Virus record (IMG/VR): IMGVR_UViG_3300000553_000012
Coordinates: 32,390 to 96,389 of that record
From: a virus
Direction: 5' to 3' (one strand)
DNA length: 64,000 bases
Made by a program: the position numbers and the translations under genes. Under the pieces are notes generated by a model. That model made no database searches. It was given only the letters and a program-made list of their open reading frames with translations, and was not told the DNA's origin. Positions 27,522-54,608 of the stretch are shown here, in pieces; positions within the stretch are counted from its first letter, which is position 1, and each line of letters opens with the position of its first letter.

Positions 27522-28058
27522 TTATAACCAATCTGGCTTTTCTCTTTTTTTCCAAGCATGAAGATGAATTTTTGCTCGTTTATAATATTGGCGATAATTT
27601 TCTATTGGATTATCGCTGATAATATATTCTGGTGCCATAGCAGAAGGTGGAATAGTAAAGTCCCAATCTTTTAGATTATACGGTGGTGATTGTAAATGAA
27701 ATCCTAATCCACTAGATTTGACTTTATGAATTTTTTCATATCGATATTGATATTCATCCATAAGGGCAAACATATGATCTACAAGCCAAGAATAATTTTC
27801 AATCGATCGCCGACACCAAACGGCACTAGGATGATTGGTGTGTGTGGCCGAGTACATAATGTTTTCACGGGCATCATTTAATCTCCACCGCTTAACTTTA
27901 CGTCCAGTCTGTGTTTGATCAACATATTGTTCACCATCAAGAACACGGTGTGCTGTTGACAATAATTGCGCCGACTCAAGAATCATTTTTACACAATGTT
28001 TATCAACTAGACACTGTGCGGCAATATTAGGATTAGAATCTACATAAAAAATATTCAT
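27522..28058 (-). CDS. pyrimidine-dimer DNA glycosylase (DenV-family)-like protein
   Basis: MNIFY..DKHCVKMILESAQLLSTAH, THTNHPSAVW. Confidence 0.8.
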   Translation of the reverse strand: MNIFYVDSNPNIAAQCLVDKHCVKMILESAQLLSTAHRVLDGEQYVDQTQTGRKVKRWRLNDARENIMYSATHTNHPSAVWCRRSIENYSWLVDHMFALMDEYQYRYEKIHKVKSSGLGFHLQSPPYNLKDWDFTIPPSAMAPEYIISDNPIENYRQYYKRAKIHLHAWKKREKPDWL

Positions 28059-32195: not shown

Positions 32196-32558
32196 TTAAT
32201 CTGCCTGTCTTGTAATAAATGTTTTTCTAATTTTATTTGGTTTAAAATATTGATTTACTGTATCTATCACGTCTTGTATATTATATTCTTGACACGAAAA
32301 AACATCGAGATACAATTCACAACTATTATCACAAAAATGTGCCGTTATATTACTAGTTTCAATGAGTTGAATCACAGTCCAACCGGCAAGATGTTCTTCA
32401 TTATGCCCAAAATGAACAATTTGTGGTTCTCCATATGGAATCATATTGATTTTTTTTACTAAATATTCAATCCACGATCTTAAAATTTCCGGAGATGTAA
32501 TTGATCTCTTATCACATCCTGAGCAATCGAGAAGGGTATGATATCCCCAATATGACAT
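32196..32558 (-). CDS. speD: S-adenosylmethionine decarboxylase
   Basis: WGYHTLLDC, LIETSNITAH (self-cleavage Ser), YLDVFSC. Confidence 0.85.
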   Translation of the reverse strand: MSYWGYHTLLDCSGCDKRSITSPEILRSWIEYLVKKINMIPYGEPQIVHFGHNEEHLAGWTVIQLIETSNITAHFCDNSCELYLDVFSCQEYNIQDVIDTVNQYFKPNKIRKTFITRQAD

Positions 32559-34690: not shown

Positions 34691-35656
34691 CTATTTTATT
34701 GATGCTGGATTAATGACATTCACCATATTACGCCAGGCGGATGCACCAGTAGAAGATAAAGGCCATGGCGCATTAGCATGTCCAGCATTTTCACCGCCGG
34801 GACAATCGAAAATCAAAAGCATATTAAAATTGACGGGAACTTGATATGACGTTTTACCGAGTAAGTAGTTTGTTATTGAATTAAAAAAAGCCGATTGATT
34901 TTGTGGTAAAGCCGCAGTTTCAGCAATACCACATGATTTGCCTCGATTACACCAATATGTTAAATTTGCTGGTAAAGGATTAGTTGTTGCTGTAAAATCT
35001 TCTTCTTCTGTTCCAGCAGGATAATGATCAAACATTATTCTATCTACATATACATCTCCAGGATAAAAAGGAAGTACCGCGGCCGGAACTCTCGGGGCGG
35101 CTGGAACCCAAGCCCATAATACATTTGTTGCTCCTTCTTGAACAAATATATCATGAATATGCTGCCATCCTGCAACAAACCCGGCGGGATTGCTTTGAGT
35201 ATTACAGCTATGAATATCAGAAATATTAAATTCCCACCCCGTTCCTCTAAATAAAATAGGATGACCAAAGGCGGCGGCCGCTTTAGCAAAATTACGATAA
35301 TATACATCATCCGCGCCGGCCAATAATCTAGCCGGAGTATCACATCTTACATTAAGAACTGGAGTAATTCCCAAAGCATACATTTTATTTAAACTATCAA
35401 TTGGAAATTTTCCTGGATCTTTTGGATCAACTACACCATTATTAATCCAACAATGAGCATACGTTGGATATGTTCCTGTCAAACTTTTAAACGCGGCCAT
35501 TTGACGAACTGTTCTAGAACAATCATCTATGTCTGATTTTTGCACAGATAATCCTTCTGGATTAACATATGCTCCAAAATAAACGGCTGGTGTGGCCAAT
35601 GCGGGTTTACATATTAACAAAGTTGCCAAAATAGCAAATATTTGTAATAGTTTCAT
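34691..35656 (-). CDS. secreted GH26-like glycoside hydrolase
   Basis: signal peptide; LFR..WEFN (acid/base), WAWVP, FYPGDVYVD...D.Y, IAET (nucleophile). Confidence 0.8.
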   Translation of the reverse strand: MKLLQIFAILATLLICKPALATPAVYFGAYVNPEGLSVQKSDIDDCSRTVRQMAAFKSLTGTYPTYAHCWINNGVVDPKDPGKFPIDSLNKMYALGITPVLNVRCDTPARLLAGADDVYYRNFAKAAAAFGHPILFRGTGWEFNISDIHSCNTQSNPAGFVAGWQHIHDIFVQEGATNVLWAWVPAAPRVPAAVLPFYPGDVYVDRIMFDHYPAGTEEEDFTATTNPLPANLTYWCNRGKSCGIAETAALPQNQSAFFNSITNYLLGKTSYQVPVNFNMLLIFDCPGGENAGHANAPWPLSSTGASAWRNMVNVINPASIK

Positions 35657-35712: not shown

Positions 35713-36699
35713 TTAACACTCGCAATTGATACGACTTCCATGATCATAAAAAGCAAAATCATAAATTCTACATTCAGTATCAGTGGTGATTGATTTAATC
35801 ACTTTTTCTCTTTTATCTTTAGGAACATAAAAAACAAAGAATCCTCCGCCGCCGGCGCCCATCAATTTACCACCAAGAGCTCCATTTTCCATAGCTTTTA
35901 AGTATATCATATCAAAATAATTGCTAGTAATATCTTTTACAACTTCTTTTTTATCTATCCAAGATGAATGAAGCATATCACCAAAACTATCAAAATCCCC
36001 ATCAGCAAGATATTTAGAAGCACTATAAGCTTTATCTCTAGAACGACAAACTAATTTAAATTTATCAGCATCTTTCATGGCGGTTTGTTGTTTTTGCAAA
36101 ATGCTATTGGCGGATCGGCTTTTTCCACTATATACCAATAAAAGATTATCTTCTAATTTAGTAATATCTTTACGCAATATATTTATACTATTAATAGAAA
36201 CATTTCCATCTTTTTCAAATTCGAATAAATTAAATCCACCATATGCGGCTGCATATTGATCTTGTTTACCAACCGGATAATTACACTTATTCATTTCAAT
36301 TTCACATGCTACATCGGCTAAATACTTTCGAGATGAAATTTCCCAACGAGAAGATGATAAAGCATTAACTAATCCGACAGTAAATGCAGAAGAAGAGCCT
36401 AATCCTGAGCCTTTTGATATAATATCAGATATTGAAGCAATGGTAATTTCTTTATCTATAGAATAGTATTTTAGTGCTTCTTTAGTAATTAGATGTTGCA
36501 TATCCTCAATATCTTTAAACTCTTCAATTGAGTCATACATAATTTTGATTCCAAGATGAGGAGTTTTGTGAACCATAACATAAATAAATTTATTGATAGT
36601 TACGGATAATGCAGCACCTTTTTCTTTACTATAAAATGATGGCATATCACTTCCACCAGAGAAGAAACTTAAACGAAGTGGAGTTTTTGAAATGATCAT
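35713..36699 (-). CDS. hddA: GHMP kinase, HddA-like heptose-7-phosphate 1-kinase
   Basis: TPLRLSFFSGGSD, GSGLGSSS, GKQDQY, GGKLMGAGGGGF. Confidence 0.85.
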   Translation of the reverse strand: MIISKTPLRLSFFSGGSDMPSFYSKEKGAALSVTINKFIYVMVHKTPHLGIKIMYDSIEEFKDIEDMQHLITKEALKYYSIDKEITIASISDIISKGSGLGSSSAFTVGLVNALSSSRWEISSRKYLADVACEIEMNKCNYPVGKQDQYAAAYGGFNLFEFEKDGNVSINSINILRKDITKLEDNLLLVYSGKSRSANSILQKQQTAMKDADKFKLVCRSRDKAYSASKYLADGDFDSFGDMLHSSWIDKKEVVKDITSNYFDMIYLKAMENGALGGKLMGAGGGGFFVFYVPKDKREKVIKSITTDTECRIYDFAFYDHGSRINCEC

Positions 36700-37703
36700 G
36701 GTGTTGTCTTAAAAATAAACATTTCTTTAGGCTTTTTTCGTGATTCAATAGTTGGATATTGTTCAAGCAATGCTTTTAACATAATTTCCCATTGGGTTTT
36801 AATTCTGTTAATGTTATATCTACCATCGACAAAAAATTTATTGAATCCGATTATATCAGAATAGTTTTCATCTTTAATTAGTTGTATTGCAGCATCTAAA
36901 TGACTGGAAAATATGTTGGCATGTATATTCTGATCTTCACGATTTCCTTGATACATAAGATTTAATCCACCAGATGTTTCTGATAAAGCTCCATAATTTG
37001 GATGAACACAAAGAAGTCCCGCAGACATTGATTCAAGCATAGCTCTACAACTCGTTTCAAGCCATATCGATGGATATGCAAAAATATGATATCCATTTAA
37101 CTCTTCTCTAAGTTTATCGTTTGGTACAAATCCATGATATGTCATTTGAGGATGATTAATGACCTCATTATATAAAGGCTCAAACGATTTATCTGCATCA
37201 TCCCAGCCATATATCTTAAAACTTGAATATACATGAAGATGAAGTTCTGGATATTTTTTGGCCAAATGTTTAAATACAGGAATTAATATTTCTAGACCAC
37301 GCTGGGGCGTAGATGTATAAACTAAATGTATCTTACTATCATTTGGTTTAATCAAGGCAGATGATGGAGCCGGATCAATACCAGACTCTAATACAATAGA
37401 TTTATTATCATAAGGAATTCTATGAATAAGCTGATATCGTTGATATTGCCAATTACTAATAAAAACATATTTATGAAAATTGTCTTGAAACTGTTTATCT
37501 TGGAATTTTTGTGATTCTGGATCTTCTGGCAAATCATGACACCAAAAAATACGGATCTTTTCCATATCTAAATCTCTTGGGCGAGAACAAATAATTTGAA
37601 AATTACTTAAAAGTTCTGGATCAAGTAATTCTGCAAGCTTACGTTTAGCAATTTCTGTTCCGCCATTAGCTTTAGCTGAAATTTCATTTTCTTCAAATGC
37701 CAT
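36696..37703 (-). CDS. GT-B (GT4-like) glycosyltransferase
   Basis: GGTE, YTSTPQRGL, YPSIWLETSC...E..SAG. Confidence 0.85.
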   Translation of the reverse strand: MAFEENEISAKANGGTEIAKRKLAELLDPELLSNFQIICSRPRDLDMEKIRIFWCHDLPEDPESQKFQDKQFQDNFHKYVFISNWQYQRYQLIHRIPYDNKSIVLESGIDPAPSSALIKPNDSKIHLVYTSTPQRGLEILIPVFKHLAKKYPELHLHVYSSFKIYGWDDADKSFEPLYNEVINHPQMTYHGFVPNDKLREELNGYHIFAYPSIWLETSCRAMLESMSAGLLCVHPNYGALSETSGGLNLMYQGNREDQNIHANIFSSHLDAAIQLIKDENYSDIIGFNKFFVDGRYNINRIKTQWEIMLKALLEQYPTIESRKKPKEMFIFKTTP

Positions 37704-37726
37704 ATTTTATTTACCTTTCATACATT

Positions 37727-38458
37727 TTATATAGTGTAGCCTGATGCCACAGCATCATTAAAGAACATTTGACAAGTTTCTTTAGAAAATTGTGTTGGAT
37801 TTTTAATGCCAAATCCATGAACTTTCTTAATTAGATCGGGCGTCATTGTAATAATATGACAGCCACAACCATCCGCTTCAATATAGTTAAATGCCTCACG
37901 GGAACTGGCCCATAGAAATTCACATTTATTATGATTTGTATATTCATAACAATAATCAATACCATCTACAATAATATTAACGGGGTCAATACCAATATCA
38001 GCAAGACGTCCGGCAAATACCGACACAATACTTGGAACTTCTGTATTTAGATTATTAACAGCATTTTTAATCTGTTCAAGCGTAAACACTGCCGTGACAT
38101 TTAATGAAATGCCTTCATCGCTGAGTTGCTTAATAAGATTGTATGTAGGTGTACCGTCTGTATGCATAATAGGGATCTTAACATATACATGATAACTATA
38201 CTTTTTGCCCCAGCTATCAATTAGACGGGCCTGACGAATAATATCTGAATCATTATCCGCAAAAACTTCAAGACTTAAACATGTGTCAGGACGAAGACTT
38301 GCTAATTTTGCAATCAACGTATTGGCAAATTCTGTATAATCAGTAACACCGGCTTGACGCATAAGAGTAGGATTAGTAGTAAATCCTAGTATATTTGGAT
38401 TGGCGGCGGCTTCAATGATACCATTCATATCGGCACCATCGGCAAATAATTTAATCAT
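37727..38458 (-). CDS. tal: transaldolase
   Basis: LFADGAD, GFTTNPTLM, VYVKIP (Schiff-base Lys), NVTAVF, SVFAGR, LWASSRE. Confidence 0.9.
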   Translation of the reverse strand: MIKLFADGADMNGIIEAAANPNILGFTTNPTLMRQAGVTDYTEFANTLIAKLASLRPDTCLSLEVFADNDSDIIRQARLIDSWGKKYSYHVYVKIPIMHTDGTPTYNLIKQLSDEGISLNVTAVFTLEQIKNAVNNLNTEVPSIVSVFAGRLADIGIDPVNIIVDGIDYCYEYTNHNKCEFLWASSREAFNYIEADGCGCHIITMTPDLIKKVHGFGIKNPTQFSKETCQMFFNDAVASGYTI

Positions 38459-38982
38459 TTATTTAGACTCCATATCAGTGAACAAGCTTCAAAAACATTT
38501 TCTGCCTCATAATCGGGCTTAATATTTTCATATTCTTTTGGGCATTCATATTCATCGAATATGCCATTTTTAATCCATATAGTTTTCAGACCGGCATTGT
38601 GGCCGCATACCACATCTCTCCACCTATCGCCAACAAAAAAACTCTTAGAGATGTCTACATTATGAATACTACGTAAATAATCTATCATACCTGTATTGGG
38701 TTTATAACTATTTGATCCACGTATTCTAGATGAAATAACATCATCAAAACAAAAATATGTCATATAGAGTTTCATCATTTCATCATGAAATTCATCTGTA
38801 ACTTCAGGATCGGGTTGATTAGTCACCATAAAGGTTTTATATCCAAGGTCTTGAATTAGAAGAATAGCTTGTTTTGAATTATTAAAAAATATAATATCTT
38901 TCATATTCCAAGCACCATGTGGTGGTGTGCCAACCATAGGCGATAATACACCATCTTTATCAAAAAAGACCGATTTTACCAT
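38455..38982 (-). CDS. gmhB: HAD phosphatase, GmhB-like heptose-1,7-bisphosphate phosphatase
   Basis: FFDKDGVL, VTNQ, KPNTGM, VGDRWRD. Confidence 0.82.
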   Translation of the reverse strand: MVKSVFFDKDGVLSPMVGTPPHGAWNMKDIIFFNNSKQAILLIQDLGYKTFMVTNQPDPEVTDEFHDEMMKLYMTYFCFDDVISSRIRGSNSYKPNTGMIDYLRSIHNVDISKSFFVGDRWRDVVCGHNAGLKTIWIKNGIFDEYECPKEYENIKPDYEAENVFEACSLIWSLNK

Positions 38983-39560
38983 TTCGTTTTATTCATTTGA
39001 AGAATTGGATGAGATACTAAACAATGCCATACTACTGCCTGAAAAGCTTCTGAGTGTGGTGTTATTCTAGTAGGTTCTACTATAGGTATGATAATAGAAA
39101 CATCGCTATTGTGGGCTGCATATCCATCGGATTTTCCAACAATACTAAGAACTGTTCCAGTTTTTTCTTTAGCGTATTTGATTGCTTTGATCAAACCAAT
39201 CGAAACATTCTTTTCTTCATTACCGCCTCCAACCGATAAAACAAAAATAGTATCATTTTTATTAAATCGACTTACTTGAAGAAACTGTTCAAAGATTGTA
39301 TCAAACCCTTCATCGTTTGTTCGAGCAGTTAGCTCACTTGAATTATCTGTCGGGGCGTAAGCTTCAATATTACATAATTTACGAAGATCATTGACCATAT
39401 GAGAAGCATTACCGGCCGAACCGCCTACACCAAGAACAAATACACGACCTTTATTAATTTGTGTTTTATGAAGGCTCTTGGCTATATCTTCAATTTTATT
39501 GGTATCAATTTGTGTTGCAATATCTACTACTTCATTAAAAAAAATATTACTAAAACTCAT
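38976..39560 (-). CDS. gmhA: SIS-domain phosphoheptose isomerase
   Basis: GVGGSAGNASH..NDL, TARTND.G, E..Q..WH. Confidence 0.85.
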   Translation of the reverse strand: MSFSNIFFNEVVDIATQIDTNKIEDIAKSLHKTQINKGRVFVLGVGGSAGNASHMVNDLRKLCNIEAYAPTDNSSELTARTNDEGFDTIFEQFLQVSRFNKNDTIFVLSVGGGNEEKNVSIGLIKAIKYAKEKTGTVLSIVGKSDGYAAHNSDVSIIIPIVEPTRITPHSEAFQAVVWHCLVSHPILQMNKTKW

Positions 39561-39561
39561 A

Positions 39562-39969
39562 CTATTTAATCCTTTTTCTCAAATCAGTTGAACTATATGA
39601 ATGCATTCTGGGAGAATTGAAAAAGATTGTGATTCCTTTATGGTCACAAATATCTTTACCAGTAAAATTAGTTTTATTATATTCATAACCCAAGAATCTA
39701 ATATTTATGGGTAATGTGGCCATCATATTTTCTAAGTCTTTTTCTGTATCATATGGTACTATTTTATTAACAAACTTACATGCTGTTAATTGAATATATC
39801 GTTCAAAAACTGATTGAATGGGTCTTTGCTTATCATTTGGCCTATCAATAGTTGGATCTGTGTGTAGTCCAACTATTAAATAATTACAATTATTTTTACA
39901 TTCTTCTAGCATTGTAATATGCCCGGGGTGTAATAGATCAAATGCCCCACAAGTAAATCCTACAATCAT
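39562..39969 (-). CDS. HxGH cytidylyltransferase-superfamily nucleotidyltransferase (TagD/HldC-like)
   Basis: GAFDLLHPGH, LIVGL..D, ER, SSTDLR. Confidence 0.85.
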   Translation of the reverse strand: MIVGFTCGAFDLLHPGHITMLEECKNNCNYLIVGLHTDPTIDRPNDKQRPIQSVFERYIQLTACKFVNKIVPYDTEKDLENMMATLPINIRFLGYEYNKTNFTGKDICDHKGITIFFNSPRMHSYSSTDLRKRIK

Positions 39970-40650: not shown

Positions 40651-40725
40651 TGGTGCGCCCGGAAGGATTTGAACCTCCAACCAGACCGTTATGAGCGATC
40701 GGCTCTACCGTTGAGCTACAAGCGC
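40651..40725 (-). tRNA. tRNA with CAU anticodon, probably Ile2
   Basis: cloverleaf GCGCUUG..., loop CUCAUAA, encoded CCA; paired 1-72; resembles bacterial Ile2. Confidence 0.88.
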
Positions 40726-40729
40726 AAAT

Positions 40730-40804
40730 TGGTTGTCCCGCCGGGAATCGAACCCAGATCCTGCAGTTATAAGCTGCGCGCACTAACCGTTATGCTACGA
40801 GACG
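40730..40804 (-). tRNA. tRNA-Ile(UAU) with C1xA72 mismatch
   Basis: cloverleaf, loop CUUAUAA, UUCGAUU T-loop, encoded CCA. Confidence 0.85.
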
Positions 40805-40812
40805 TCAACATG

Positions 40813-40998
40813 TTATGATATAAAAGATATTTGTTTTTCCATATCTTTCATTTGAGAATATAATGCATTTACTTCTTTGCGTAGATTTTCAATTTCTTCA
40901 ATAGCATCAAAAGCACAATTGGCTTCGGTATAAGCTCCTAATATATCACAAACTTCAGCATATGCACGAAGTCTATCAATAATGTCAGGCTTTTCCAT
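40813..40998 (-). CDS. hypothetical protein
   Basis: DIIDRLR...AIEEIENLR phage motif. Confidence 0.6.
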   Translation of the reverse strand: MEKPDIIDRLRAYAEVCDILGAYTEANCAFDAIEEIENLRKEVNALYSQMKDMEKQISFIS

Positions 40999-41000
40999 GA

Positions 41001-41501
41001 TTAAATTTGTTCCTTATAAAAAATCATTGGTCCGAGTTGTGTAGTTTTAATCATATGTTTCCAATTTGGATGAACATATATTGCGTGAAAAAATAATGCT
41101 CCGTTAGAAACATCATATGTGTTTTTTCTATATACATATTCAGCAATTTTATAGGCCTTTTGATAGACCTTTTGATTAATGTGAGGAAGCTTATTTGAAC
41201 ACACCCAAGAAAATTGGCAATGATTTCCGTGCTTTTGATATACAACACCACAAGGAGTATCTGAAAATATTTTATTATATTTGGTTCTATTTATAATTAC
41301 ATTACTAACTGCCATTTGACTCTTTATTGGTTGATTTCCGGCTTCAAAATAAGCGTTGTCAGCCATACATTTAATTTGTCTTTCATCATTTAGATTCATT
41401 ATATTAGTTTGTATTGGATTTGCATATGTGCTATATACTCCAAATATAAATGATAATATAGCCAATAAAATTAGTACAATTAATTTATATTTGTTTAACA
41501 T
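41001..41501 (-). CDS. SleB/Hydrolase_2 cell-wall hydrolase with N-terminal TM
   Basis: CMADNAYFEA, NVIINR, CQFSW, GALFFHA.YV.P.W; start MLNKYK after AAGAGGA. Confidence 0.85.
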   Translation of the reverse strand: MLNKYKLIVLILLAILSFIFGVYSTYANPIQTNIMNLNDERQIKCMADNAYFEAGNQPIKSQMAVSNVIINRTKYNKIFSDTPCGVVYQKHGNHCQFSWVCSNKLPHINQKVYQKAYKIAEYVYRKNTYDVSNGALFFHAIYVHPNWKHMIKTTQLGPMIFYKEQI

Positions 41502-41509
41502 TTTAGTCC

Positions 41510-41712
41510 TCTTAGTAAATGATTTTGGTTCAGATCCAAAAATCTGACTACTAAGAAGATACAAAGACCTTCATCGTCCATCCCTTTCGACTTAGGAATG
41601 CAAAATCATTAGTGTTTTCGTTGGTGGAATTATCATGAAGATAATTCCGCTTTCTAGCCATCTATGACATTGAAGCTTGCGTCGAATAGTATGGAAGAGT
41701 GATCTTCCACTT
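41510..41712 (-). ncRNA. candidate structured leader RNA upstream of cell-wall hydrolase
   Basis: follows TATAAATA (41714-41721); several hairpins and crossing long-range pairings. Confidence 0.55.
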
Positions 41713-41723
41713 ATATTTATATG

Positions 41724-42110
41724 TTATCGTCTCATACTTGCTATTTCTTTTGCCTTTTCTTTGTTATCAGCAAAAATCGGCACCAAATTAGATTTATGCA
41801 TAACAGCCACACCGATAAGTTTATTTTCTCCGGAATAAACCATTGCTTTTGGTTTAACCGCCACTCCACTAGGAATAATATCTGATGTCTTTGGCGTGTA
41901 TCTATCAATAGGACTAGAATACATACCATAGCTATTGGAGGGGCTTGGAGTGGGTTGTTTATTATTAGATGAGGTATATCCCATCTTTTTAAGATGCTTA
42001 TCTAGCTCTTTCTGTGCAGCTATAATTTTAGCAGTTTTTTTTGATGTTTTTCGCCTACGAGTGTTTGTTGTGGTAAAATAAACCGGCATTAACGTCATAT
42101 CAACCTCCAT
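41724..42110 (-). CDS. conserved phage hypothetical protein
   Basis: YSG..LIGVAVMHKSNLVPIF...A.EIASMRR. Confidence 0.75.
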   Translation of the reverse strand: MEVDMTLMPVYFTTTNTRRRKTSKKTAKIIAAQKELDKHLKKMGYTSSNNKQPTPSPSNSYGMYSSPIDRYTPKTSDIIPSGVAVKPKAMVYSGENKLIGVAVMHKSNLVPIFADNKEKAKEIASMRR

Positions 42111-42115
42111 ATTAG

Positions 42116-42148
42116 AAGATTATAATATCATATGTTAAATTAATGTCA
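42116..42148 (-). promoter_or_regulatory. sigma70-like early promoter
   Basis: TTGACA...ATATGATATTATAATCTT. Confidence 0.6.
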
Positions 42149-42631
42149 ATAATCAAAAACAGCAATTAAATCTGGAAGTTCTCCTAAGTCTGAATTATGG
42201 TGTGCAGAGTTAAACATTTTAAAATCATCTTTGATATATTTTTGAACTTGCCAAATTGGATAAGGAACCCTATGAATTCCGTGATTTTTTCCTCTATGAT
42301 GCGACATACATAACACTTTCATATTATACGGACTATCTATAAAATCTTCCGATTCTTTAAATGAAGACCAATCAAAATCAGGATGATCTATTTTTACTTT
42401 ATTCCAATCAATAGCATTAGCATATGCCCATTCTATATAAAAATGATGACATTCTCTGTTTTCTTTAGATCCACATATCCAACAAGGAATATCTTCTTCT
42501 TTTATTAATTTTTTTACTGTACGTTTAAATGTGGAAGAAGAAGTTCTCTTTTCATGGTAAGGATACCACACATCAATTTCAAAACTATCTTTTACTTCAT
42601 GCCGATCTAGTGAGTTTGTCATTAGTCCCAA
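42146..42631 (-). CDS. HNH-like protein
   Basis: CWICG...ECHH...NMKVLC..HH...GIH. Confidence 0.7.
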   Translation of the reverse strand: MGLMTNSLDRHEVKDSFEIDVWYPYHEKRTSSSTFKRTVKKLIKEEDIPCWICGSKENRECHHFYIEWAYANAIDWNKVKIDHPDFDWSSFKESEDFIDSPYNMKVLCMSHHRGKNHGIHRVPYPIWQVQKYIKDDFKMFNSAHHNSDLGELPDLIAVFDY

Positions 42632-43044
42632 AGTGCTCTAAAATATTTACCAAATAGTCGAAGACCATTATCAATTCGCGCACAATATGAATTATATTTT
42701 TCTATATCAAATACTGATTTTGATTCCCAACAAGAATTTGAAATTTCGCCAAAAGTAGAAATCATTTCATCAAGAACCCAAGTCCAACGGGCGTCAAAAT
42801 TATCATCAATGTCCCATTCATTTATTTTTTCAGGGGCCGCGGTTGAACGAATATCTTCAGGTACATCTTCATCATCTACAAAAGGTGTACCGTGTTTAGT
42901 TTCTTTTAATTGAATAAGCATTGGATGAATAATTAAAGAAAGCGTGTGATCCATATTCCAAGTATCCCATGGATCGATTTTGATTTCAATCTTACGTTCT
43001 TTTCCAGATTCAAAGCTGGGAAATCTACCTAACTTAATTTTCAT
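42622..43044 (-). CDS. conserved phage hypothetical protein
   Basis: WDTWNMDHTL, LDEMI..F, GLRLFGKYFRALWD. Confidence 0.75.
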   Translation of the reverse strand: MKIKLGRFPSFESGKERKIEIKIDPWDTWNMDHTLSLIIHPMLIQLKETKHGTPFVDDEDVPEDIRSTAAPEKINEWDIDDNFDARWTWVLDEMISTFGEISNSCWESKSVFDIEKYNSYCARIDNGLRLFGKYFRALWD

Positions 43045-43297
43045 TAGTAGCTTCTTTCTTTGGTTTTGGATTACCCCAATATGTATTAGTCTTAACTTTA
43101 ATAAACCTACGGTTAGTTGCTGATTTATCTGGATTTGGTATGGTAATCCATGGATTCTTCAATTGTTTCCATGCAATTGAAATATTTTCTAATTTTTGTA
43201 AATAAGTTCTATCTGCTCGAATAGATTGGCAAATTCCGCGAGAAACTGTAGAATGAATTCCTTTTGATGTATACTTTTTTCGTGTTTTTACTGCCAT
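43034..43297 (-). CDS. hypothetical protein
   Basis: basic 87-aa ORF, NPWITIPNP. Confidence 0.65.
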   Translation of the reverse strand: MAVKTRKKYTSKGIHSTVSRGICQSIRADRTYLQKLENISIAWKQLKNPWITIPNPDKSATNRRFIKVKTNTYWGNPKPKKEATNEN

Positions 43298-43321
43298 TTT
43301 ATATTCCTTTAATTATTAAAT

Positions 43322-43395
43322 TGGAGAGACCGGAGAGAATCGAACTCTCATCTTTGGCTTGGAAGGCGATTATAATACCATTATACTACGGTCTC
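43322..43395 (-). tRNA. tRNA-Gly(UCC)
   Basis: GAGACCG/CGGUCUC-U-CCA, loop CUUCCAA; anticodon stem has mismatches. Confidence 0.8.
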
Positions 43396-43396
43396 G

Positions 43397-43618
43397 TTAC
43401 GGAAGCATATCATAAAATTTGCCGGAATTTTGGCCGATTGCTCTTACTCTATTTTTTGGATATCTTTTTTTAGCATATTCTAATGCTCTAGCTATAGATT
43501 GGGGCCTATTAGCTATGCCTCCTTCTATTTTTCTCCATGTATTATCTATACCTAAGACTTCAATTATAATTGTTTCATATTTTTCTGAAGCTTCATTGAA
43601 ATCTTTAAAATTTTTCAT
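43397..43618 (-). CDS. small protein with capsid-targeting-like N-terminus
   Basis: MKNFKDFNE. Confidence 0.6.
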   Translation of the reverse strand: MKNFKDFNEASEKYETIIIEVLGIDNTWRKIEGGIANRPQSIARALEYAKKRYPKNRVRAIGQNSGKFYDMLP

Positions 43619-43845
43619 TAGACTGCCATTTTTGGAGTTGCTGGTGATAATGCATTTAAGGAATCGAATAACATAGCATCGGCTGATTCTTGACTACCAA
43701 AACTAATACCTAATCCTCGTCTAGCATATGCAGCCATTACTGTAGCCAATACTGTAAGCTCTTCGCCAGTTTCACATTCCATAATTATTTCATCTAATTT
43801 ATTTAAGAAATGCTTTACTTTTAGTTCTAATTCAATATCATCCAT
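43618..43845 (-). CDS. hypothetical protein
   Basis: 75-aa ORF with SD. Confidence 0.6.
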   Translation of the reverse strand: MDDIELELKVKHFLNKLDEIIMECETGEELTVLATVMAAYARRGLGISFGSQESADAMLFDSLNALSPATPKMAV

Positions 43846-43882
43846 CTTAATTCCTTGATAAGAGTTTTAAATAATTATACAT

Positions 43883-43957
43883 TGGTGCTCTCACTCTGAC
43901 TTGCACAGAGAATAAGGGGTTACAAAACCCTCGGTATACTACTTTACCTATGAGAGC
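43883..43957 (-). tRNA. tRNA-Thr(UGU)
   Basis: GCUCUCA/UGAGAGC-A-CCA, loop UUUGUAA; atypical T-loop UGCAAGU. Confidence 0.78.
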
Positions 43958-44239
43958 TTACTTTTCATTATAATATTCTACAGCATAATCTTTTATAAAA
44001 ATCAAATCATTATTATCAATATGCTTTTGAACACAGGTATCACATAAAATAGCGCCATTATGATAATCTACTTCTTCTACAAATTTCCAAACTTGTAGAT
44101 CAATAATATTTGATCCATAATGTCCAAAAAGTCTTCCTGTGCTTTTTTGATATTCAGAAGAACAATTTTTAGCTTGAGTTTCAGAATAATAGTTTTCATA
44201 TTTTATATTACAACTATCACATTTTACATATTTTTTCAT
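43958..44239 (-). CDS. hypothetical Zn-binding protein
   Basis: CDSC...GHYGS...CDTC. Confidence 0.6.
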   Translation of the reverse strand: MKKYVKCDSCNIKYENYYSETQAKNCSSEYQKSTGRLFGHYGSNIIDLQVWKFVEEVDYHNGAILCDTCVQKHIDNNDLIFIKDYAVEYYNEK

Positions 44240-44856
44240 TATATACTCGTTGTTGTTATAGACGTTTTTCCTGAATGATCATCATGATTGACATGATGTG
44301 CGTGAAAATTGACATCCGGATGATCTTGTTTTAATGATAAAAACGAAGAAAGATTGTCTTTAGAATCATCATATAAATGAACAGACTTATAGCCATGTTG
44401 TTTAATTAGATTAGAAATAACTTTTCTTTTTGTTTCGGGTGGACGGCCTTCCATATTTCCGGCGCGTCTTACATGAACTTTATTAATATCTATACCATAT
44501 TTATTCATAAACTCTGAAAACTTTGGCTGATCATCAAAATCTGATCTAGCAGTTACAATTTCTGTTTTACCTCCCTGTCTATGTATTGCTTTTAGTTTAG
44601 CAAGCATTTTACGGATTGGTTTTGCAGTTTGATTGAGTTTGTTAGCTGATCTAAAATCGCTAAAATCATAACTATGTCCTGATGGAAGCTTATGATTATT
44701 GAATTCTTGATTAGTAAGAGACTGTACTCTTTCTCCTTGAGGATTTAACACATGAATTTGTAATTTACTTGGATCATGCGCAAAAAGAGTTTCATCCATA
44801 TCAAATGCATGAAGTGTATTATTAGACTCATATACAAATTGAACAAAAGATGTCAT
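44239..44856 (-). CDS. HAD-superfamily phosphatase-like protein, His-rich
   Basis: FDMDETL, VTAR, K, YDDS; MTSFVQFVYE start. Confidence 0.78.
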   Translation of the reverse strand: MTSFVQFVYESNNTLHAFDMDETLFAHDPSKLQIHVLNPQGERVQSLTNQEFNNHKLPSGHSYDFSDFRSANKLNQTAKPIRKMLAKLKAIHRQGGKTEIVTARSDFDDQPKFSEFMNKYGIDINKVHVRRAGNMEGRPPETKRKVISNLIKQHGYKSVHLYDDSKDNLSSFLSLKQDHPDVNFHAHHVNHDDHSGKTSITTTSI

Positions 44857-44882
44857 TTTTTATCCTTTTTGGATATTTATTA

Positions 44883-44957
44883 TGGCGCGTCTGCTAGGAA
44901 TCAAACCTAGAATAAAAGTTTAGAAGACTCTTGTGATATTCATTTCACCACAGACGC
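44883..44957 (-). tRNA. tRNA-Arg(UCU)
   Basis: GCGUCUG/CAGACGC-G-CCA, loop CUUCUAA. Confidence 0.8.
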
Positions 44958-52358: not shown

Positions 52359-52374
52359 TATTTTGGAGAATATA

Positions 52375-52893
52375 ATGACTATACTTACGTTGGTAGATAA
52401 TACCGATCAGATTTTAAAAACCAAACTAGAACCATTTAATTTTTACACTCCTCCGTGTGATCCTATTAAATTAGCAAAAGATTTGACTGAAACGATGATT
52501 TCAAATCACGGATTGGGTTTGGCGGCAAATCAAGTCGGTCTTCCCTATCGAGTATTTGTTCTTACTGGTGAGCAAGTTTATGCTTGTTTTAATCCAAGAA
52601 TAGTTGACATTTCTTCAGAAATGGTGTATATTAATGAAGGCTGTTTGAGTTATCCTGGTATGGTAGTAAAGATTAAACGACCAAGAGCAATCAAAGTAAG
52701 ATTTACTATGCCTAACGGTGAAACTACAACAACAAAGTTTGATGGACTTACCTCCAGATGTTTTCAACATGAATTAGATCATTTGAATGGCATATGTCAC
52801 TTAGACATTGCACATCCATTTCATAAAGAAAAGTCTCTTAAACTACTTAAGATACACAATCGAATCCTTAAAAAGACAGGAACTAAAAAATGA
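52375..52893 (+). CDS. def: peptide deformylase
   Basis: GLGLAANQVG, EGCLS, QHELDHL. Confidence 0.93.
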   Translation: MTILTLVDNTDQILKTKLEPFNFYTPPCDPIKLAKDLTETMISNHGLGLAANQVGLPYRVFVLTGEQVYACFNPRIVDISSEMVYINEGCLSYPGMVVKIKRPRAIKVRFTMPNGETTTTKFDGLTSRCFQHELDHLNGICHLDIAHPFHKEKSLKLLKIHNRILKKTGTKK

Positions 52894-53234
52894 GTAAACC
52901 CACAGTCGAAGAATCTTCTGAATATGAAAACTGTTTAGATACAGAGAATGTATCATATGGAGTTTCTAATTTAAATGATTTTTTTCCTGAAAATGCAACA
53001 GAAGAACAAAATGATACTAAGTGGAAAAAACATTGGGTAGGAATGCCCGAATACAAGCAAGAAGACAATCCAACATATAAAACAATCTATGTTCATTTTA
53101 GAAACGAAGAAGATTACCAAGAATTCGCAAACATAATTGGTCAATCTTTGACAAAAAAGACAAAGAGTATTTGGCATCCACGACTAGATCGCGATGCTAA
53201 TGCATTACGTAGGTGGATTGAAACGGATGACTAA
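52890..53234 (+). CDS. small partner of putative DNA glycosyltransferase
   Basis: HWVGMPEY.Q, VHFRNEED..F...GQ..T.KTKSIW.P; coupled to next gene. Confidence 0.7.
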   Translation: MSKPTVEESSEYENCLDTENVSYGVSNLNDFFPENATEEQNDTKWKKHWVGMPEYKQEDNPTYKTIYVHFRNEEDYQEFANIIGQSLTKKTKSIWHPRLDRDANALRRWIETDD

Positions 53235-54144
53235 TCCAAAATATCCTGTCTATATTATTAGTAAGGGTCGGCACGAATCAATGCTAACCTCTCGTTCTTT
53301 GTCTCGTATGAAAGTACCCCATTATATTGCGATTGAACCACAGGACGAAGAGCTGTATGAACAAGCTCTAGATAACTTCGACATTCGTGAATATGTTACA
53401 CTTTTGATTGCTCCATTCAGCAATCACGGTGATGGTCCTGGTCGTGCTAGAAATTGGTGTTGGGATCATTCTATTTCTATTGGCGCAACTAGTCATTGGG
53501 TGATGGATGATAATATCACGGACTTTTATCGTCTCCATGAAAACAGCCGTATACGTGTTGAATCTGGTGTAATATTCAAAGCAGCAGAAGATTTTGTTGA
53601 TCGATATGAAAATGTTCTAATCTCTGGTTTTCAATATAGATTTTTTATTGCTCCTAATCAAAAATATCCACCTTATGTGACAAACACCCGCATCTATTCA
53701 ACTTTGCTTATTCGAAACGATTGCAAACATCGCTGGCGCGGCCGTTACAATGAAGATACTGATATCTGTCTTCGTGTATTGAAAGATGGTGATTGCACTA
53801 TTCAGTTTAACGCTTTTCTTCAAGGTAAAGCGGCGACACAAACAGTAAAAGGTGGCAACACCAGTGAATTTTATCATGCTGAAGGAACACAAGATAAGAC
53901 TCACTGGAGAGACGGGCACCTTAATCCAGAGGGCACCATCAATAAATCACAGATGCTAGTGGACATGCATCCAGACGTTGCCAGAATGGTTTTTCGATAC
54001 GGTAGATGGCATCATTACGTTGATTATAGCTCATTCAAGAAAAATCAACTTAAGCTAAAGTCTGATATTGATTTAAAATCTTTACCTAAAATTAATAATT
54101 ATGGAATGAAATTGATTAAATTAGATAAAAGTGATGTTTCATGA
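53227..54144 (+). CDS. GT-A glycosyltransferase, TAGT/GREB1-like (putative DNA-base glycosyltransferase)
   Basis: PVYIISKGR, ARNWCW, WVMDDNI, YNEDTD..L, KGGNT, RWHHYVD. Confidence 0.75.
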   Translation: MTNPKYPVYIISKGRHESMLTSRSLSRMKVPHYIAIEPQDEELYEQALDNFDIREYVTLLIAPFSNHGDGPGRARNWCWDHSISIGATSHWVMDDNITDFYRLHENSRIRVESGVIFKAAEDFVDRYENVLISGFQYRFFIAPNQKYPPYVTNTRIYSTLLIRNDCKHRWRGRYNEDTDICLRVLKDGDCTIQFNAFLQGKAATQTVKGGNTSEFYHAEGTQDKTHWRDGHLNPEGTINKSQMLVDMHPDVARMVFRYGRWHHYVDYSSFKKNQLKLKSDIDLKSLPKINNYGMKLIKLDKSDVS

Positions 54145-54608
54145 TATCTACAAGTAATTGGAATAAACGATATTTAGAACTAGCAAAACACGTATCTTCG
54201 TGGTCTAAAGATCCTTCTACTAAAATTGGATCCGTAGCTGTTGGAAATGGAGGACAAATATTATCATTAGGATATAATGGATTTCCTAGAAACATTGAAG
54301 ATGATCATCGATTGATTGATAGAGAAATTAAATATTCTTTAGTAGTACATGCTGAAATGAATGTCATTTACAATGCATCTTTGAATGGAGTATCTTTAAA
54401 AGATTCTACACTATATGTACATGGTCTGCCTATTTGTTCAGAATGTGCTAAAGGCGTTATTCAAGTTGGTATTAAAAAAGTAGTTATGCAGTTTGATAAA
54501 AATATTAATAAAAAATGGACAGATTCCTTCAAATTGACGAAAAATATGTTCACAGAATCTAATATTTCTTTTATAGAATATGATGAGGAATTGATAAACG
54601 ATGGATAA
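54141..54608 (+). CDS. dCMP deaminase
   Basis: SKDPSTKIG, GYNGFP, HAEMN, PICSEC. Confidence 0.92.
   Translation: MISTSNWNKRYLELAKHVSSWSKDPSTKIGSVAVGNGGQILSLGYNGFPRNIEDDHRLIDREIKYSLVVHAEMNVIYNASLNGVSLKDSTLYVHGLPICSECAKGVIQVGIKKVVMQFDKNINKKWTDSFKLTKNMFTESNISFIEYDEELINDG

Follow-up and report, generated by a model that had tools for sequence, protein, structure and literature searches.

Why should a lytic phage carry six adjoining genes of sugar metabolism, and what would their product be used for? The question arises from a 64,000-nucleotide stretch of viral DNA, here called the window (positions 32,390 to 96,389 of IMG/VR virus record IMGVR_UViG_3300000553_000012), in which the interval 35713-39969 is filled exactly by six co-oriented and mostly overlapping minus-strand open reading frames (ORFs) of the ORF listing. 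We put the probability at about 0.6 that these genes are one translationally coupled cassette which, judging from sequence, would both make an activated heptose and spend it, with a hydroxymethylated pyrimidine in the phage's own DNA as the leading candidate acceptor. If the cassette works in this way, lytic phages do not simply borrow sugar nucleotides from the host but bring the whole route, from precursor supply onwards, to a sugar that part of their hosts may not make. The source is an uncultured T4-like phage; its record is 96 kb long with an estimated completeness of 57%, and the window encodes a T4-type RNase H, DNA polymerase, helicase, ribonucleotide reductase and ThyX.

A six-gene cassette conserved among phages

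Families were assigned by profile searches (Pfam, NCBIfam, PHROG) together with matches to solved structures. Read along the minus strand, the genes encode a 135-aa nucleotidyltransferase of the HxGH (cytidylyltransferase-fold) type (39562-39969), a 194-aa GmhA-type isomerase with a SIS domain (38976-39560), a 175-aa HAD-IIIA phosphatase (38455-38982), a 243-aa transaldolase (37727-38458), a 335-aa GT-B glycosyltransferase (GT) of the retaining GT4 type (36696-37703) and a 328-aa GHMP kinase of the HddA type (35713-36699). In the same order, the first two genes are separated by 1 nt, the next two junctions are overlaps of 7 nt and 4 nt, a gap of 23 nt follows, and the last two genes overlap by 4 nt. 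The original prediction, made from the letters of the window, had named this tightly packed run and these families, and both the ORF listing and the profile matches bear it out in the order given. Catalytic residues are invariant in all six families (36-74 unique viral homologues per protein), although overall identity drops to 28-70%.

Viral contigs were scanned with the kinase as query, which gave 14 loci, and with a 12-sequence GT alignment, which found at least 598 contigs, 80 of them retrieved. All six genes, in the order nucleotidyltransferase-GmhA-GmhB-transaldolase-GT-kinase, are present in 21 of the 38 related viral loci that have enough flanking sequence (28-78% amino acid identity), and at least one further cassette gene is present in 33 of the 38. 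The six-gene arrangement is far more frequent than chance would allow; conservation in related phages had been named along with the original prediction as a way of checking it, and the cluster withstood the check. A second arrangement, which lacks the transaldolase and runs nucleotidyltransferase-(epimerase or HAD)-GT-kinase-SIS, lies directly upstream of rnh in loci L090 and L093 and in Caulobacter phage Cr30. The core of the cassette is the nucleotidyltransferase, GT, kinase and SIS protein, and it is chiefly the recurrence of this core that leads us to assign the HxGH enzyme to the heptose route. The cassette is abundant, with the GT found in at least 598 viral contigs and a GT family of more than 3,400 representative relatives (clusters). 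At the nucleotide level, the cassette gave four short matches and nothing more when compared with 50,697 phage records.

Partial cassettes are already annotated in isolates, namely in Cr30 (gp006 isomerase, gp008 kinase, gp009 GT, gp010 epimerase and a TagD-like gene) and in Synechococcus phage SynMITS9220M01 (gp203-206). They are homologous to the genes of the window (GT 43%, kinase 37% and nucleotidyltransferase 48% identity, and the SIS protein too) and share the position upstream of rnh and nrdC-type genes, but they lack a transaldolase, nor was a HAD phosphatase detected alongside, Cr30 having an epimerase instead. The searchable literature shows no functional study of these partial cassettes and no paper on the Cr30 heptose genes; this Caulobacter phage offers a culturable test case.

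A predicted route to activated heptose

In the route that we propose, the transaldolase would convert fructose-6-phosphate and erythrose-4-phosphate to sedoheptulose-7-phosphate, from which the GmhA-type isomerase would form D-glycero-D-manno-heptose-7-phosphate. The HddA-type kinase, as a 1-kinase of the alpha-anomer type, would then phosphorylate C1 to give heptose-1,7-bisphosphate (the alpha anomer being expected), and the HAD-IIIA protein, as a GmhB-like 7-phosphatase, would take off the 7-phosphate. The resulting heptose-1-phosphate would be activated to a nucleoside diphosphate (NDP)-heptose by the HxGH nucleotidyltransferase, in place of the cellular HddC, and the retaining GT4 enzyme, the putative heptosyltransferase, would move the heptose to an acceptor conserved across the phage group.

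How well do the individual proteins fit these steps? For the isomerase, the four top NCBIfam matches are all GmhA models (53-57 bits, below their cut-offs), 13 of 13 solved-structure matches are phosphoheptose isomerases, and, of 43 bacterial GmhA homologues adjoining HddA, 39 have exactly its signature S48/H54/D58/S109/G112/E171/H179. The protein is thus a predicted SIS-domain sedoheptulose-7-phosphate isomerase with GmhA active-site residues. A distinct, transaldolase-linked GmhA class with an altered active site was rejected, since viral types A and B share one signature with the bacterial homologues, whether these have a transaldolase or lack it. The kinase has both GHMP domains, N- and C-terminal (phrog_34407, 250 bits), and the GHMP motifs are invariant in its viral homologues. 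Its top NCBIfam match is the HddA model NF049969 at 162 bits (cut-off 600), with the next family at 63 bits. Among solved structures, the heptokinases 3k85, WcbL (4usk/4usm) and C. jejuni 4n3o give 127-131 bits and the next kinase family 42 bits; the protein is predicted to belong to the GHMP-family heptose-7-phosphate 1-kinases (HddA/WcbL).

The phosphatase has diverged more than any other protein of the cassette, with an identity of 28-43% to most relatives and of 77% at most. It scores above the cut-off of TIGR01662 (HAD-SF-IIIA, 59.5 bits) and below those of the GmhB models (30-45 bits), its solved-structure matches are weak with no solved GmhB among them, and D8, D10, K94, D119 and D123 of the DxD, K and DD motifs are invariant among the viral homologues. 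Because the GmhB models score weakly and no solved GmhB was matched, its assignment as a GmhB rests on gene context, homologues of the protein adjoining HddA in most bacterial loci (tblastn). The expectation that the SIS, GHMP and HAD proteins would fall among heptose enzymes in profile and structure searches therefore held for the first two (GmhA; HddA and the solved heptokinases) and in part for the third, which is a HAD-IIIA protein with a weak likeness to GmhB.

Bacterial relatives were sought with a kinase alignment in 185,579 species genomes, which contain at least 582 of them; 80 loci, with kinases of 36-44% identity, were retrieved. GmhA and/or GmhB homologues lie within 8 kb of the kinase relative in 62 of the 80, and in four loci (one Oligoflexia, two Acidimicrobiales and one Ignavibacteria genome) GmhA (46-50% identical to the phage protein), GmhB and transaldolase (43-45%) all stand beside it. 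The Ignavibacteria locus is a surface-polysaccharide locus with the order GT4-GT2-epimerase-HddA-HddC (PF00483)-GmhA-GmhB-Tal-Bac_transf, the last being an initiating transferase; PF00483 stands at the place of HddC in bacterial locus L185. The presence of GmhA, GmhB and transaldolase beside HddA in bacteria means that the link between transaldolase and heptose exists independently of phages.

The transaldolase itself, of a Staphylococcus-type subfamily, matches PF00923 at 126.6 bits and TIGR02134 at 245.6 bits (cut-off 282), and it is the sole TAL_FSA gene of the 96-kb record. Alignment to the T. acidophilum transaldolase 3s0c places D7, E64, K94 and F148 on the catalytic Asp, Glu, Lys and Phe, and these transaldolase-type residues are invariant in 37 homologues. 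The Lys forms the Schiff base, and Glu and Phe mark transaldolases where fructose-6-phosphate aldolases have Gln and Tyr; Glu64 and Phe148 thus led us to reject a fructose-6-phosphate aldolase. We also rejected the cyanophage talC type. Cyanophage talC, an auxiliary metabolic gene, belongs to the same superfamily (PF00923; phrog_440), but the cassette transaldolase is 33% identical to it, falls into another NCBIfam subfamily (TIGR02134 as opposed to fsa/talC) and is embedded in and co-inherited with the heptose cassette.

Could this gene still be a general pentose-phosphate auxiliary gene that lies inside the cassette by chance, with the heptose route drawing on sedoheptulose-7-phosphate of the host? 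Transaldolase is well known as a phage auxiliary gene (phrog_440), and 17 of the 38 well-flanked viral loci, as well as Cr30, do without it although related phages keep the nucleotidyltransferase-GT-kinase-SIS core; the second viral arrangement shows that it is dispensable. We nevertheless find this reading rather improbable, since the start of the transaldolase overlaps the phosphatase stop by 4 nt, the gene stays between GmhB and the GT in 21 of 21 six-gene loci, the GmhA-GmhB-transaldolase order recurs in the four bacterial HddA loci and the subfamily is not that of cyanophage talC. The original prediction had cast the transaldolase as a supplier of precursor rather than as a pentose-phosphate auxiliary gene, and it finds support in the four bacterial loci (one of them a polysaccharide locus), in the non-talC type and in the fact that the record has no other TAL_FSA gene. 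The conserved GmhA-GmhB-transaldolase block of phages and bacterial polysaccharide loci gives this enzyme a testable role, that of a dedicated supplier for heptose synthesis.

The nucleotidyltransferase matches PF01467 (53 bits) and phrog_7878 (119 bits), adjoins the GT and the kinase in most related loci, and has H14, G16, H17, R121, H123 and S126 invariant in 47 viral homologues. No HddC-type (PF00483) guanylyltransferase is found among the six cassette genes, in which the PF01467 protein is the sole transferase for that step. Since an HxGH transferase lies near the kinase in only 3 of the 80 bacterial loci, the phage enzyme is best read as a non-orthologous replacement of HddC, and the cassette is a hybrid, in which an alpha-type kinase is joined by an HxGH transferase in the role that HddC has in cells. 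With HddC replaced in this way, the activated heptose may be cytidine diphosphate (CDP)- or adenosine diphosphate (ADP)-alpha-heptose, metabolites for which we found no description in the literature. CDP or ADP is more likely than guanosine diphosphate (GDP) as the nucleotide, and the clues conflict, R121 being cytidylyltransferase-like and the top profile being the adenylyltransferase domain TIGR02199.

A different product has to be weighed at this point. A TagD-like enzyme might act on a primary phosphate, for example on heptose 7-phosphate in the manner of CDP-6-glucitol or CDP-glycerol, or the transaldolase/isomerase pair might make another higher sugar, for example one of eight carbons, so that the product would not be canonical NDP-manno-heptose. 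The top solved-structure matches of the nucleotidyltransferase are ECT and TagD, the ethanolamine-phosphate and glycerol-3-phosphate cytidylyltransferases, and its relatives are automatically named glycerol-3-phosphate cytidylyltransferase; R121 agrees with the first position of the RTEGISTT-type cytidylyltransferase motif, and transaldolases can use other aldose-phosphate acceptors. A Campylobacter cytidylyltransferase works on fructose-6-phosphate, according to PMC10918830. We give this alternative only a slim chance, since the top NCBIfam match is the heptose-1-phosphate adenylyltransferase domain (TIGR02199, rfaE_dom_II, 73.9 bits with a cut-off of 181.5, ahead of TagD at 49 bits), a conserved anomeric kinase and phosphatase would be pointless were the 7-phosphate the activated group, and the active-site signature of the phage GmhA is identical to that of bacterial GmhA in HddA loci with or without transaldolase.

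Several points weigh against so specific a reading of the cassette as an NDP-heptose pathway. Most NCBIfam scores lie below the curated equivalog cut-offs, and the proteins are therefore divergent members of their families, not orthologues by the NCBI standard. The nucleotidyltransferase sequence is about equidistant from the solved ECT, TagD and 5x9q (putative cytidylyltransferase) chains, and in other phages its family stands alone or beside hexose-type genes. Its C-terminal motif, R121-M-H-S-Y-S-S-T, keeps only part of the (F/L)XXGXSTT motif that is reported as the hallmark of heptose nucleotidyltransferases (PMC11573728 and PMC11461863); the S-S/T-T part is kept, and positions 1 and 4 are R and S. 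A 51%-identical homologue in Synechococcus phage S-H68 (MK016663.1 21673-29375, L020) heads a run of sugar genes (NDP-sugar 4,6-dehydratase, 3,5-epimerase, reductase-type and 3-dehydratase genes) in which no kinase or SIS gene was detected, suggesting that the family may activate other sugars.

With the GDP-alpha-heptose pathway the cassette has the first three enzyme types in common, including the GHMP-type anomeric kinase and, as a candidate, the GmhB-like phosphatase, but HddC, the fourth defining feature, is replaced by the HxGH (PF01467) enzyme. Unlike that pathway, the cassette also has a transaldolase, one soluble GT4 and a lytic T4-like phage as its carrier. The HxGH fold of the transferase, whose top profile TIGR02199 matches below its cut-off, is common to the cassette and to the ADP-heptose pathway with its 'HENase' nucleotidyltransferases (HldE/HldC). 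That pathway uses a PfkB-type beta-kinase and a GT9 partner, whereas no PfkB domain is present in the six cassette genes, the kinase is of the GHMP type, the GT is a GT4 and the hallmark motif is kept only in part. Viral sets of isomerase, kinase and transferase can, according to a published report, produce ADP-heptose (Tang et al., Science 2024, as summarised in PMC11573728 and PMC11461863), and a commentary on that work describes the phosphatase as absent in viruses; the cassette differs from the sets described there in having one. A phage route to UDP-arabinose (RB69, DLP3, HY126; PMC13326640), which makes arabinosyl-5-hydroxycytosine DNA, follows the same logic of SIS isomerase, anomeric kinase, HAD phosphatase, nucleotidyltransferase and DNA GT, the isomerase acting on a ketose phosphate and the HAD protein removing the terminal phosphate. 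It differs in that the sugar is a pentose, the isomerase is of the arabinose-5-phosphate type, the kinase and transferase are fused and of other folds, and a ThyA-like 5-hydroxy-dCMP synthase is adjacent (PMC13326640).

Our searches found no literature on a transaldolase-containing cassette or on the pairing of HddA with an HxGH enzyme, none that names NDP-heptose together with phage and, among the matches listed, no paper combining transaldolase with hddA. To call the cassette the best candidate for an undescribed system, as the original prediction did, is overstated, given that Cr30 and Synechococcus phages already have annotated parts of it and that viral NDP-heptose enzymes (Tang et al., 2024, as cited above) and phage heptosyl-5-hydroxymethylcytosine (10.1101/2023.12.21.572611) have been published. 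Its claim of a self-contained route to NDP-heptose with a transferase to match stands as far as homology, invariant catalytic residues and conserved synteny carry it.

The glycosyltransferase and its acceptor

Where would the heptose go? The GT matches PF00534 and PF13692 (Glycos_transf_1) and phrog_2170 (165 bits), and has no sequence-level match among solved structures. Its AlphaFold model (predicted local distance difference test score 94.7) reaches Z scores of 25-27 to HepE, sucrose-phosphate synthase, MshA, PimA and BshA. All of 74 homologues keep E216-x7-E224, the EX7E motif of the C-terminal domain, and many N-terminal residues are likewise invariant. The model and the motif together predict a retaining GT4 enzyme of the GT-B fold with confidence. 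The 50 listed structural matches of the GT do not include T4 beta-glucosyltransferase, which is no evidence that the folds differ. Retaining GT4 enzymes normally use alpha-linked donors and HddA gives the alpha anomer in characterised enzymes, so the predicted fold fits an alpha-linked donor from the alpha-type kinase.

Homologues of the GT with 41-44% identity occupy a shared nrdC-GT-rnh position in phages Cr30, DLP6 and phiM12. In phiM12 (Sinorhizobium) the gene lies between a glutaredoxin gene and rnh, in DLP6 (Stenotrophomonas) it follows a glutaredoxin gene, and in Cr30 its place is upstream of the rnh region. Neither phiM12 nor DLP6 yielded a kinase homologue. The GT is older than the cassette and is an old gene of this phage group, and its single genomic position in phages of unrelated hosts argues for an acceptor that is intrinsic to the phage and conserved. 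Among GT relatives, P0264 carries a Hint/LAGLIDADG intein inserted after about residue 225, and P0273, P0291 and P0361, which are of the same length class (all four 687-699 aa) and show the same split match, probably have one too. More distant relatives (P0307, P0339, P0377, P0385, P0389, P0394 and P0395) are multi-transferase proteins of 683-1455 aa, in which the fusion partners are GT41 (OGT-like), GT2, GT25 or DXD-type domains and TPR repeats.

The leading candidate is a hydroxymethylated pyrimidine in the phage's own DNA, for which we see somewhat less than an even chance. A precedent comes from a metaviral cluster, 'contig 53', with genes for a bifunctional HAD/APH protein, an enzyme resembling cytidylyltransferases and a retaining GT4 of the GT-B fold (top PDB match BshA), which, together with a methyltransferase and TET in E. 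coli, yielded 5-heptosyl-hydroxymethylcytosine (5-heptosyl-hmC; 449 u) and a di-heptosyl form (641 u) (Pyle, Lund, O'Toole and Saleh, preprint 10.1101/2023.12.21.572611, cited as Cell Rep 2024 in PMC13229309). Contig 53, of subclass III in that work, has a CTP_transf-like transferase, a HAD phosphatase, a sugar kinase and a GT4 in common with the cassette at the level of family or fold. However, its kinase is of the APH type and fused to the HAD domain where that of the cassette is a separate GHMP protein; it has neither isomerase nor transaldolase and drew on the heptose-7-phosphate of E. coli, where the cassette has both; and it lies in a methyltransferase and TET cluster, whereas the cassette adjoins rnh. 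No cytosine methyltransferase, TET/5mYOX or ThyS gene, of the kind that provides the hydroxymethyl acceptor, was found within or adjoining the cassette.

Genes for base modification do occur elsewhere in these genomes. The window encodes a TET-associated glycosyltransferase (TAGT) at 53194-54144 on the plus strand (PF20691, 155.6 bits), and eight of the nine cassette-bearing genomes that are at least 74% complete, Cr30 included, have a Tet_JBP, a TAGT or a divergent ThyA-like gene. At the position that corresponds by synteny to the window TAGT, relatives have a MazG-like gene, a Tet_JBP gene (434-461 aa) and a variable third gene (loci L023, G001:64360-67803; L022 in genome G002; L192 in G007; L193 in G008; and NC_025422.1 59410-60681 in Cr30), and the place looks like a hot-spot of alternative modules for thymine or cytosine hypermodification. 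The third gene beside Tet_JBP is a TAGT in G002, a class-II GATase-like gene in G001 and G007, and a gene for a 327-aa protein in G008. The window TAGT shares about 50% identity with genes found in Aeromonas phages Aeh1 and 65 and in Tenacibaculum phage PTm1, and is flanked by a 114-aa ORF (52890-53234) before it and a dCMP deaminase gene (54141-54608) after it. Tet_JBP homologues in Cr30, DLP6 and C48C1 carry the annotation 'SNF2 DNA repair protein'.

The case for DNA has to contend with the following. The TET and TAGT loci lie 14-23 kb from the cassette (about 20 kb for the TET genes of relatives; the window TAGT is 13 kb away), and they bring partner enzymes of their own, a TAGT or a GATase-like gene. 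Genome G004, which bears the cassette and is 93% complete, has no Tet_JBP, TAGT or ThyA-like gene; DLP6 (with the same TET and a GT homologue) and C48C1 (with the same TET) are not among the kinase matches, and phiM12, which has a GT homologue, is not among the TET matches. A strict co-occurrence of the cassette with TET, TAGT or ThyA-like genes is rejected on the strength of these four genomes. In the 57%-complete record, no C5-methyltransferase (PF00145), TET (PF12851) or ThyA-like (PF00303) gene was found.

Tentatively, and with the odds leaning against the picture in its full detail, the DNA of a large aquatic clade of T4-like phages could bear heptosyl-hydroxymethyl-uracil or -cytosine, a pyrimidine being replaced or decorated with heptose, the donor being made wholly by phage enzymes from fructose-6-phosphate and erythrose-4-phosphate. 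Such a base, if it exists, which we hold to be possible and no better, would be the seven-carbon analogue of base J or of glucosyl-hmC, made with a kinase/transferase pairing almost unseen in cells. Were DNA the acceptor, the cassette would be a natural and self-sufficient version of a heptosyl-hmC chemistry so far shown only by heterologous reconstruction, with a bearing on restriction evasion and on enzymatic DNA labelling.

The same pathway could instead place heptose on a glycan of the host envelope (lipopolysaccharide core, O-antigen, capsule or exopolysaccharide) and thereby alter the surface of the infected cell, for instance so that superinfection is blocked or progeny do not adsorb to debris. 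The bacterial GmhA-GmhB-transaldolase-HddA relatives sit in surface-polysaccharide loci, lipid-linked or envelope acceptors are common for GT4 enzymes (the top folds include PimA and HepE), and a secreted GH26-like hydrolase is encoded directly downstream of the cassette. In pelagimyophages, rfaE and glycosyltransferases have been read as auxiliary genes of the lipopolysaccharide type (PMC7029224). Yet the GT, with its N-terminal (acceptor) half, is conserved at one position in T4-like phages of Caulobacter, Stenotrophomonas, Sinorhizobium and uncultured aquatic hosts, whose surface glycans differ, the cassette has one GT only and no flippase, polymerase or membrane segment among its six genes, and the GH26-like gene is missing from all relatives examined; an envelope acceptor is in our view unlikely.

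A protein acceptor, either a virion protein (as a glycan shield or an aid to adhesion) or a host protein, would also be served by the same pathway. Mycobacteriophages and giant viruses are known to have glycosylated virions, the top Foldseek matches of the GT include the protein O-glycosyltransferases SdgB and GtfA, and some of its distant relatives are fused to GT41 and TPR repeats, a combination typical of protein-directed transferases. The likeness to SdgB and GtfA is, however, generic to GT4, small-molecule and lipid transferases having equal or higher Z scores, and the cassette lies beside rnh among tRNAs, small ORFs and replication genes, with the structural module elsewhere. Nor does a TATAAATA late-promoter motif lie directly upstream of it; the promoter, terminator and TATAAATA scans gave chance-level counts and no clear transcription start for the cassette, and the timing of its expression is for this reason judged solely from position. 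We would be surprised by a protein acceptor, and the rest of the probability goes to acceptors other than DNA, envelope glycan and protein.

Neighbouring genes

Upstream of the cassette, the minus-strand region 40651-44957 holds five tRNA genes (Met-CAU, Ile-UAU, Gly-UCC, Thr-UGU and Arg-UCU), and a SleB-type cell-wall hydrolase is encoded within this region at 41001-41564. The GH26-like protein directly downstream of the kinase (34691-35656, minus strand) has a signal peptide; its likeness to GH26 comes from a Pfam match of 23 bits, an Atlas feature score of 0.95 and structural template modelling (TM) scores of 0.76-0.78 to GH26 clusters. The gene is missing from all related loci examined, including the 98%-complete relative. 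It was therefore rejected as a partner of the cassette and is a strain-specific insertion. Elsewhere in the window are a pyrimidine-dimer glycosylase-like gene (PF03013, 23.6 bits; 27522-28058, minus strand) and a peptide deformylase gene (52363-52893, plus strand). The former is relocated with respect to the 98%-complete relative, in which its homologue adjoins the TET locus.

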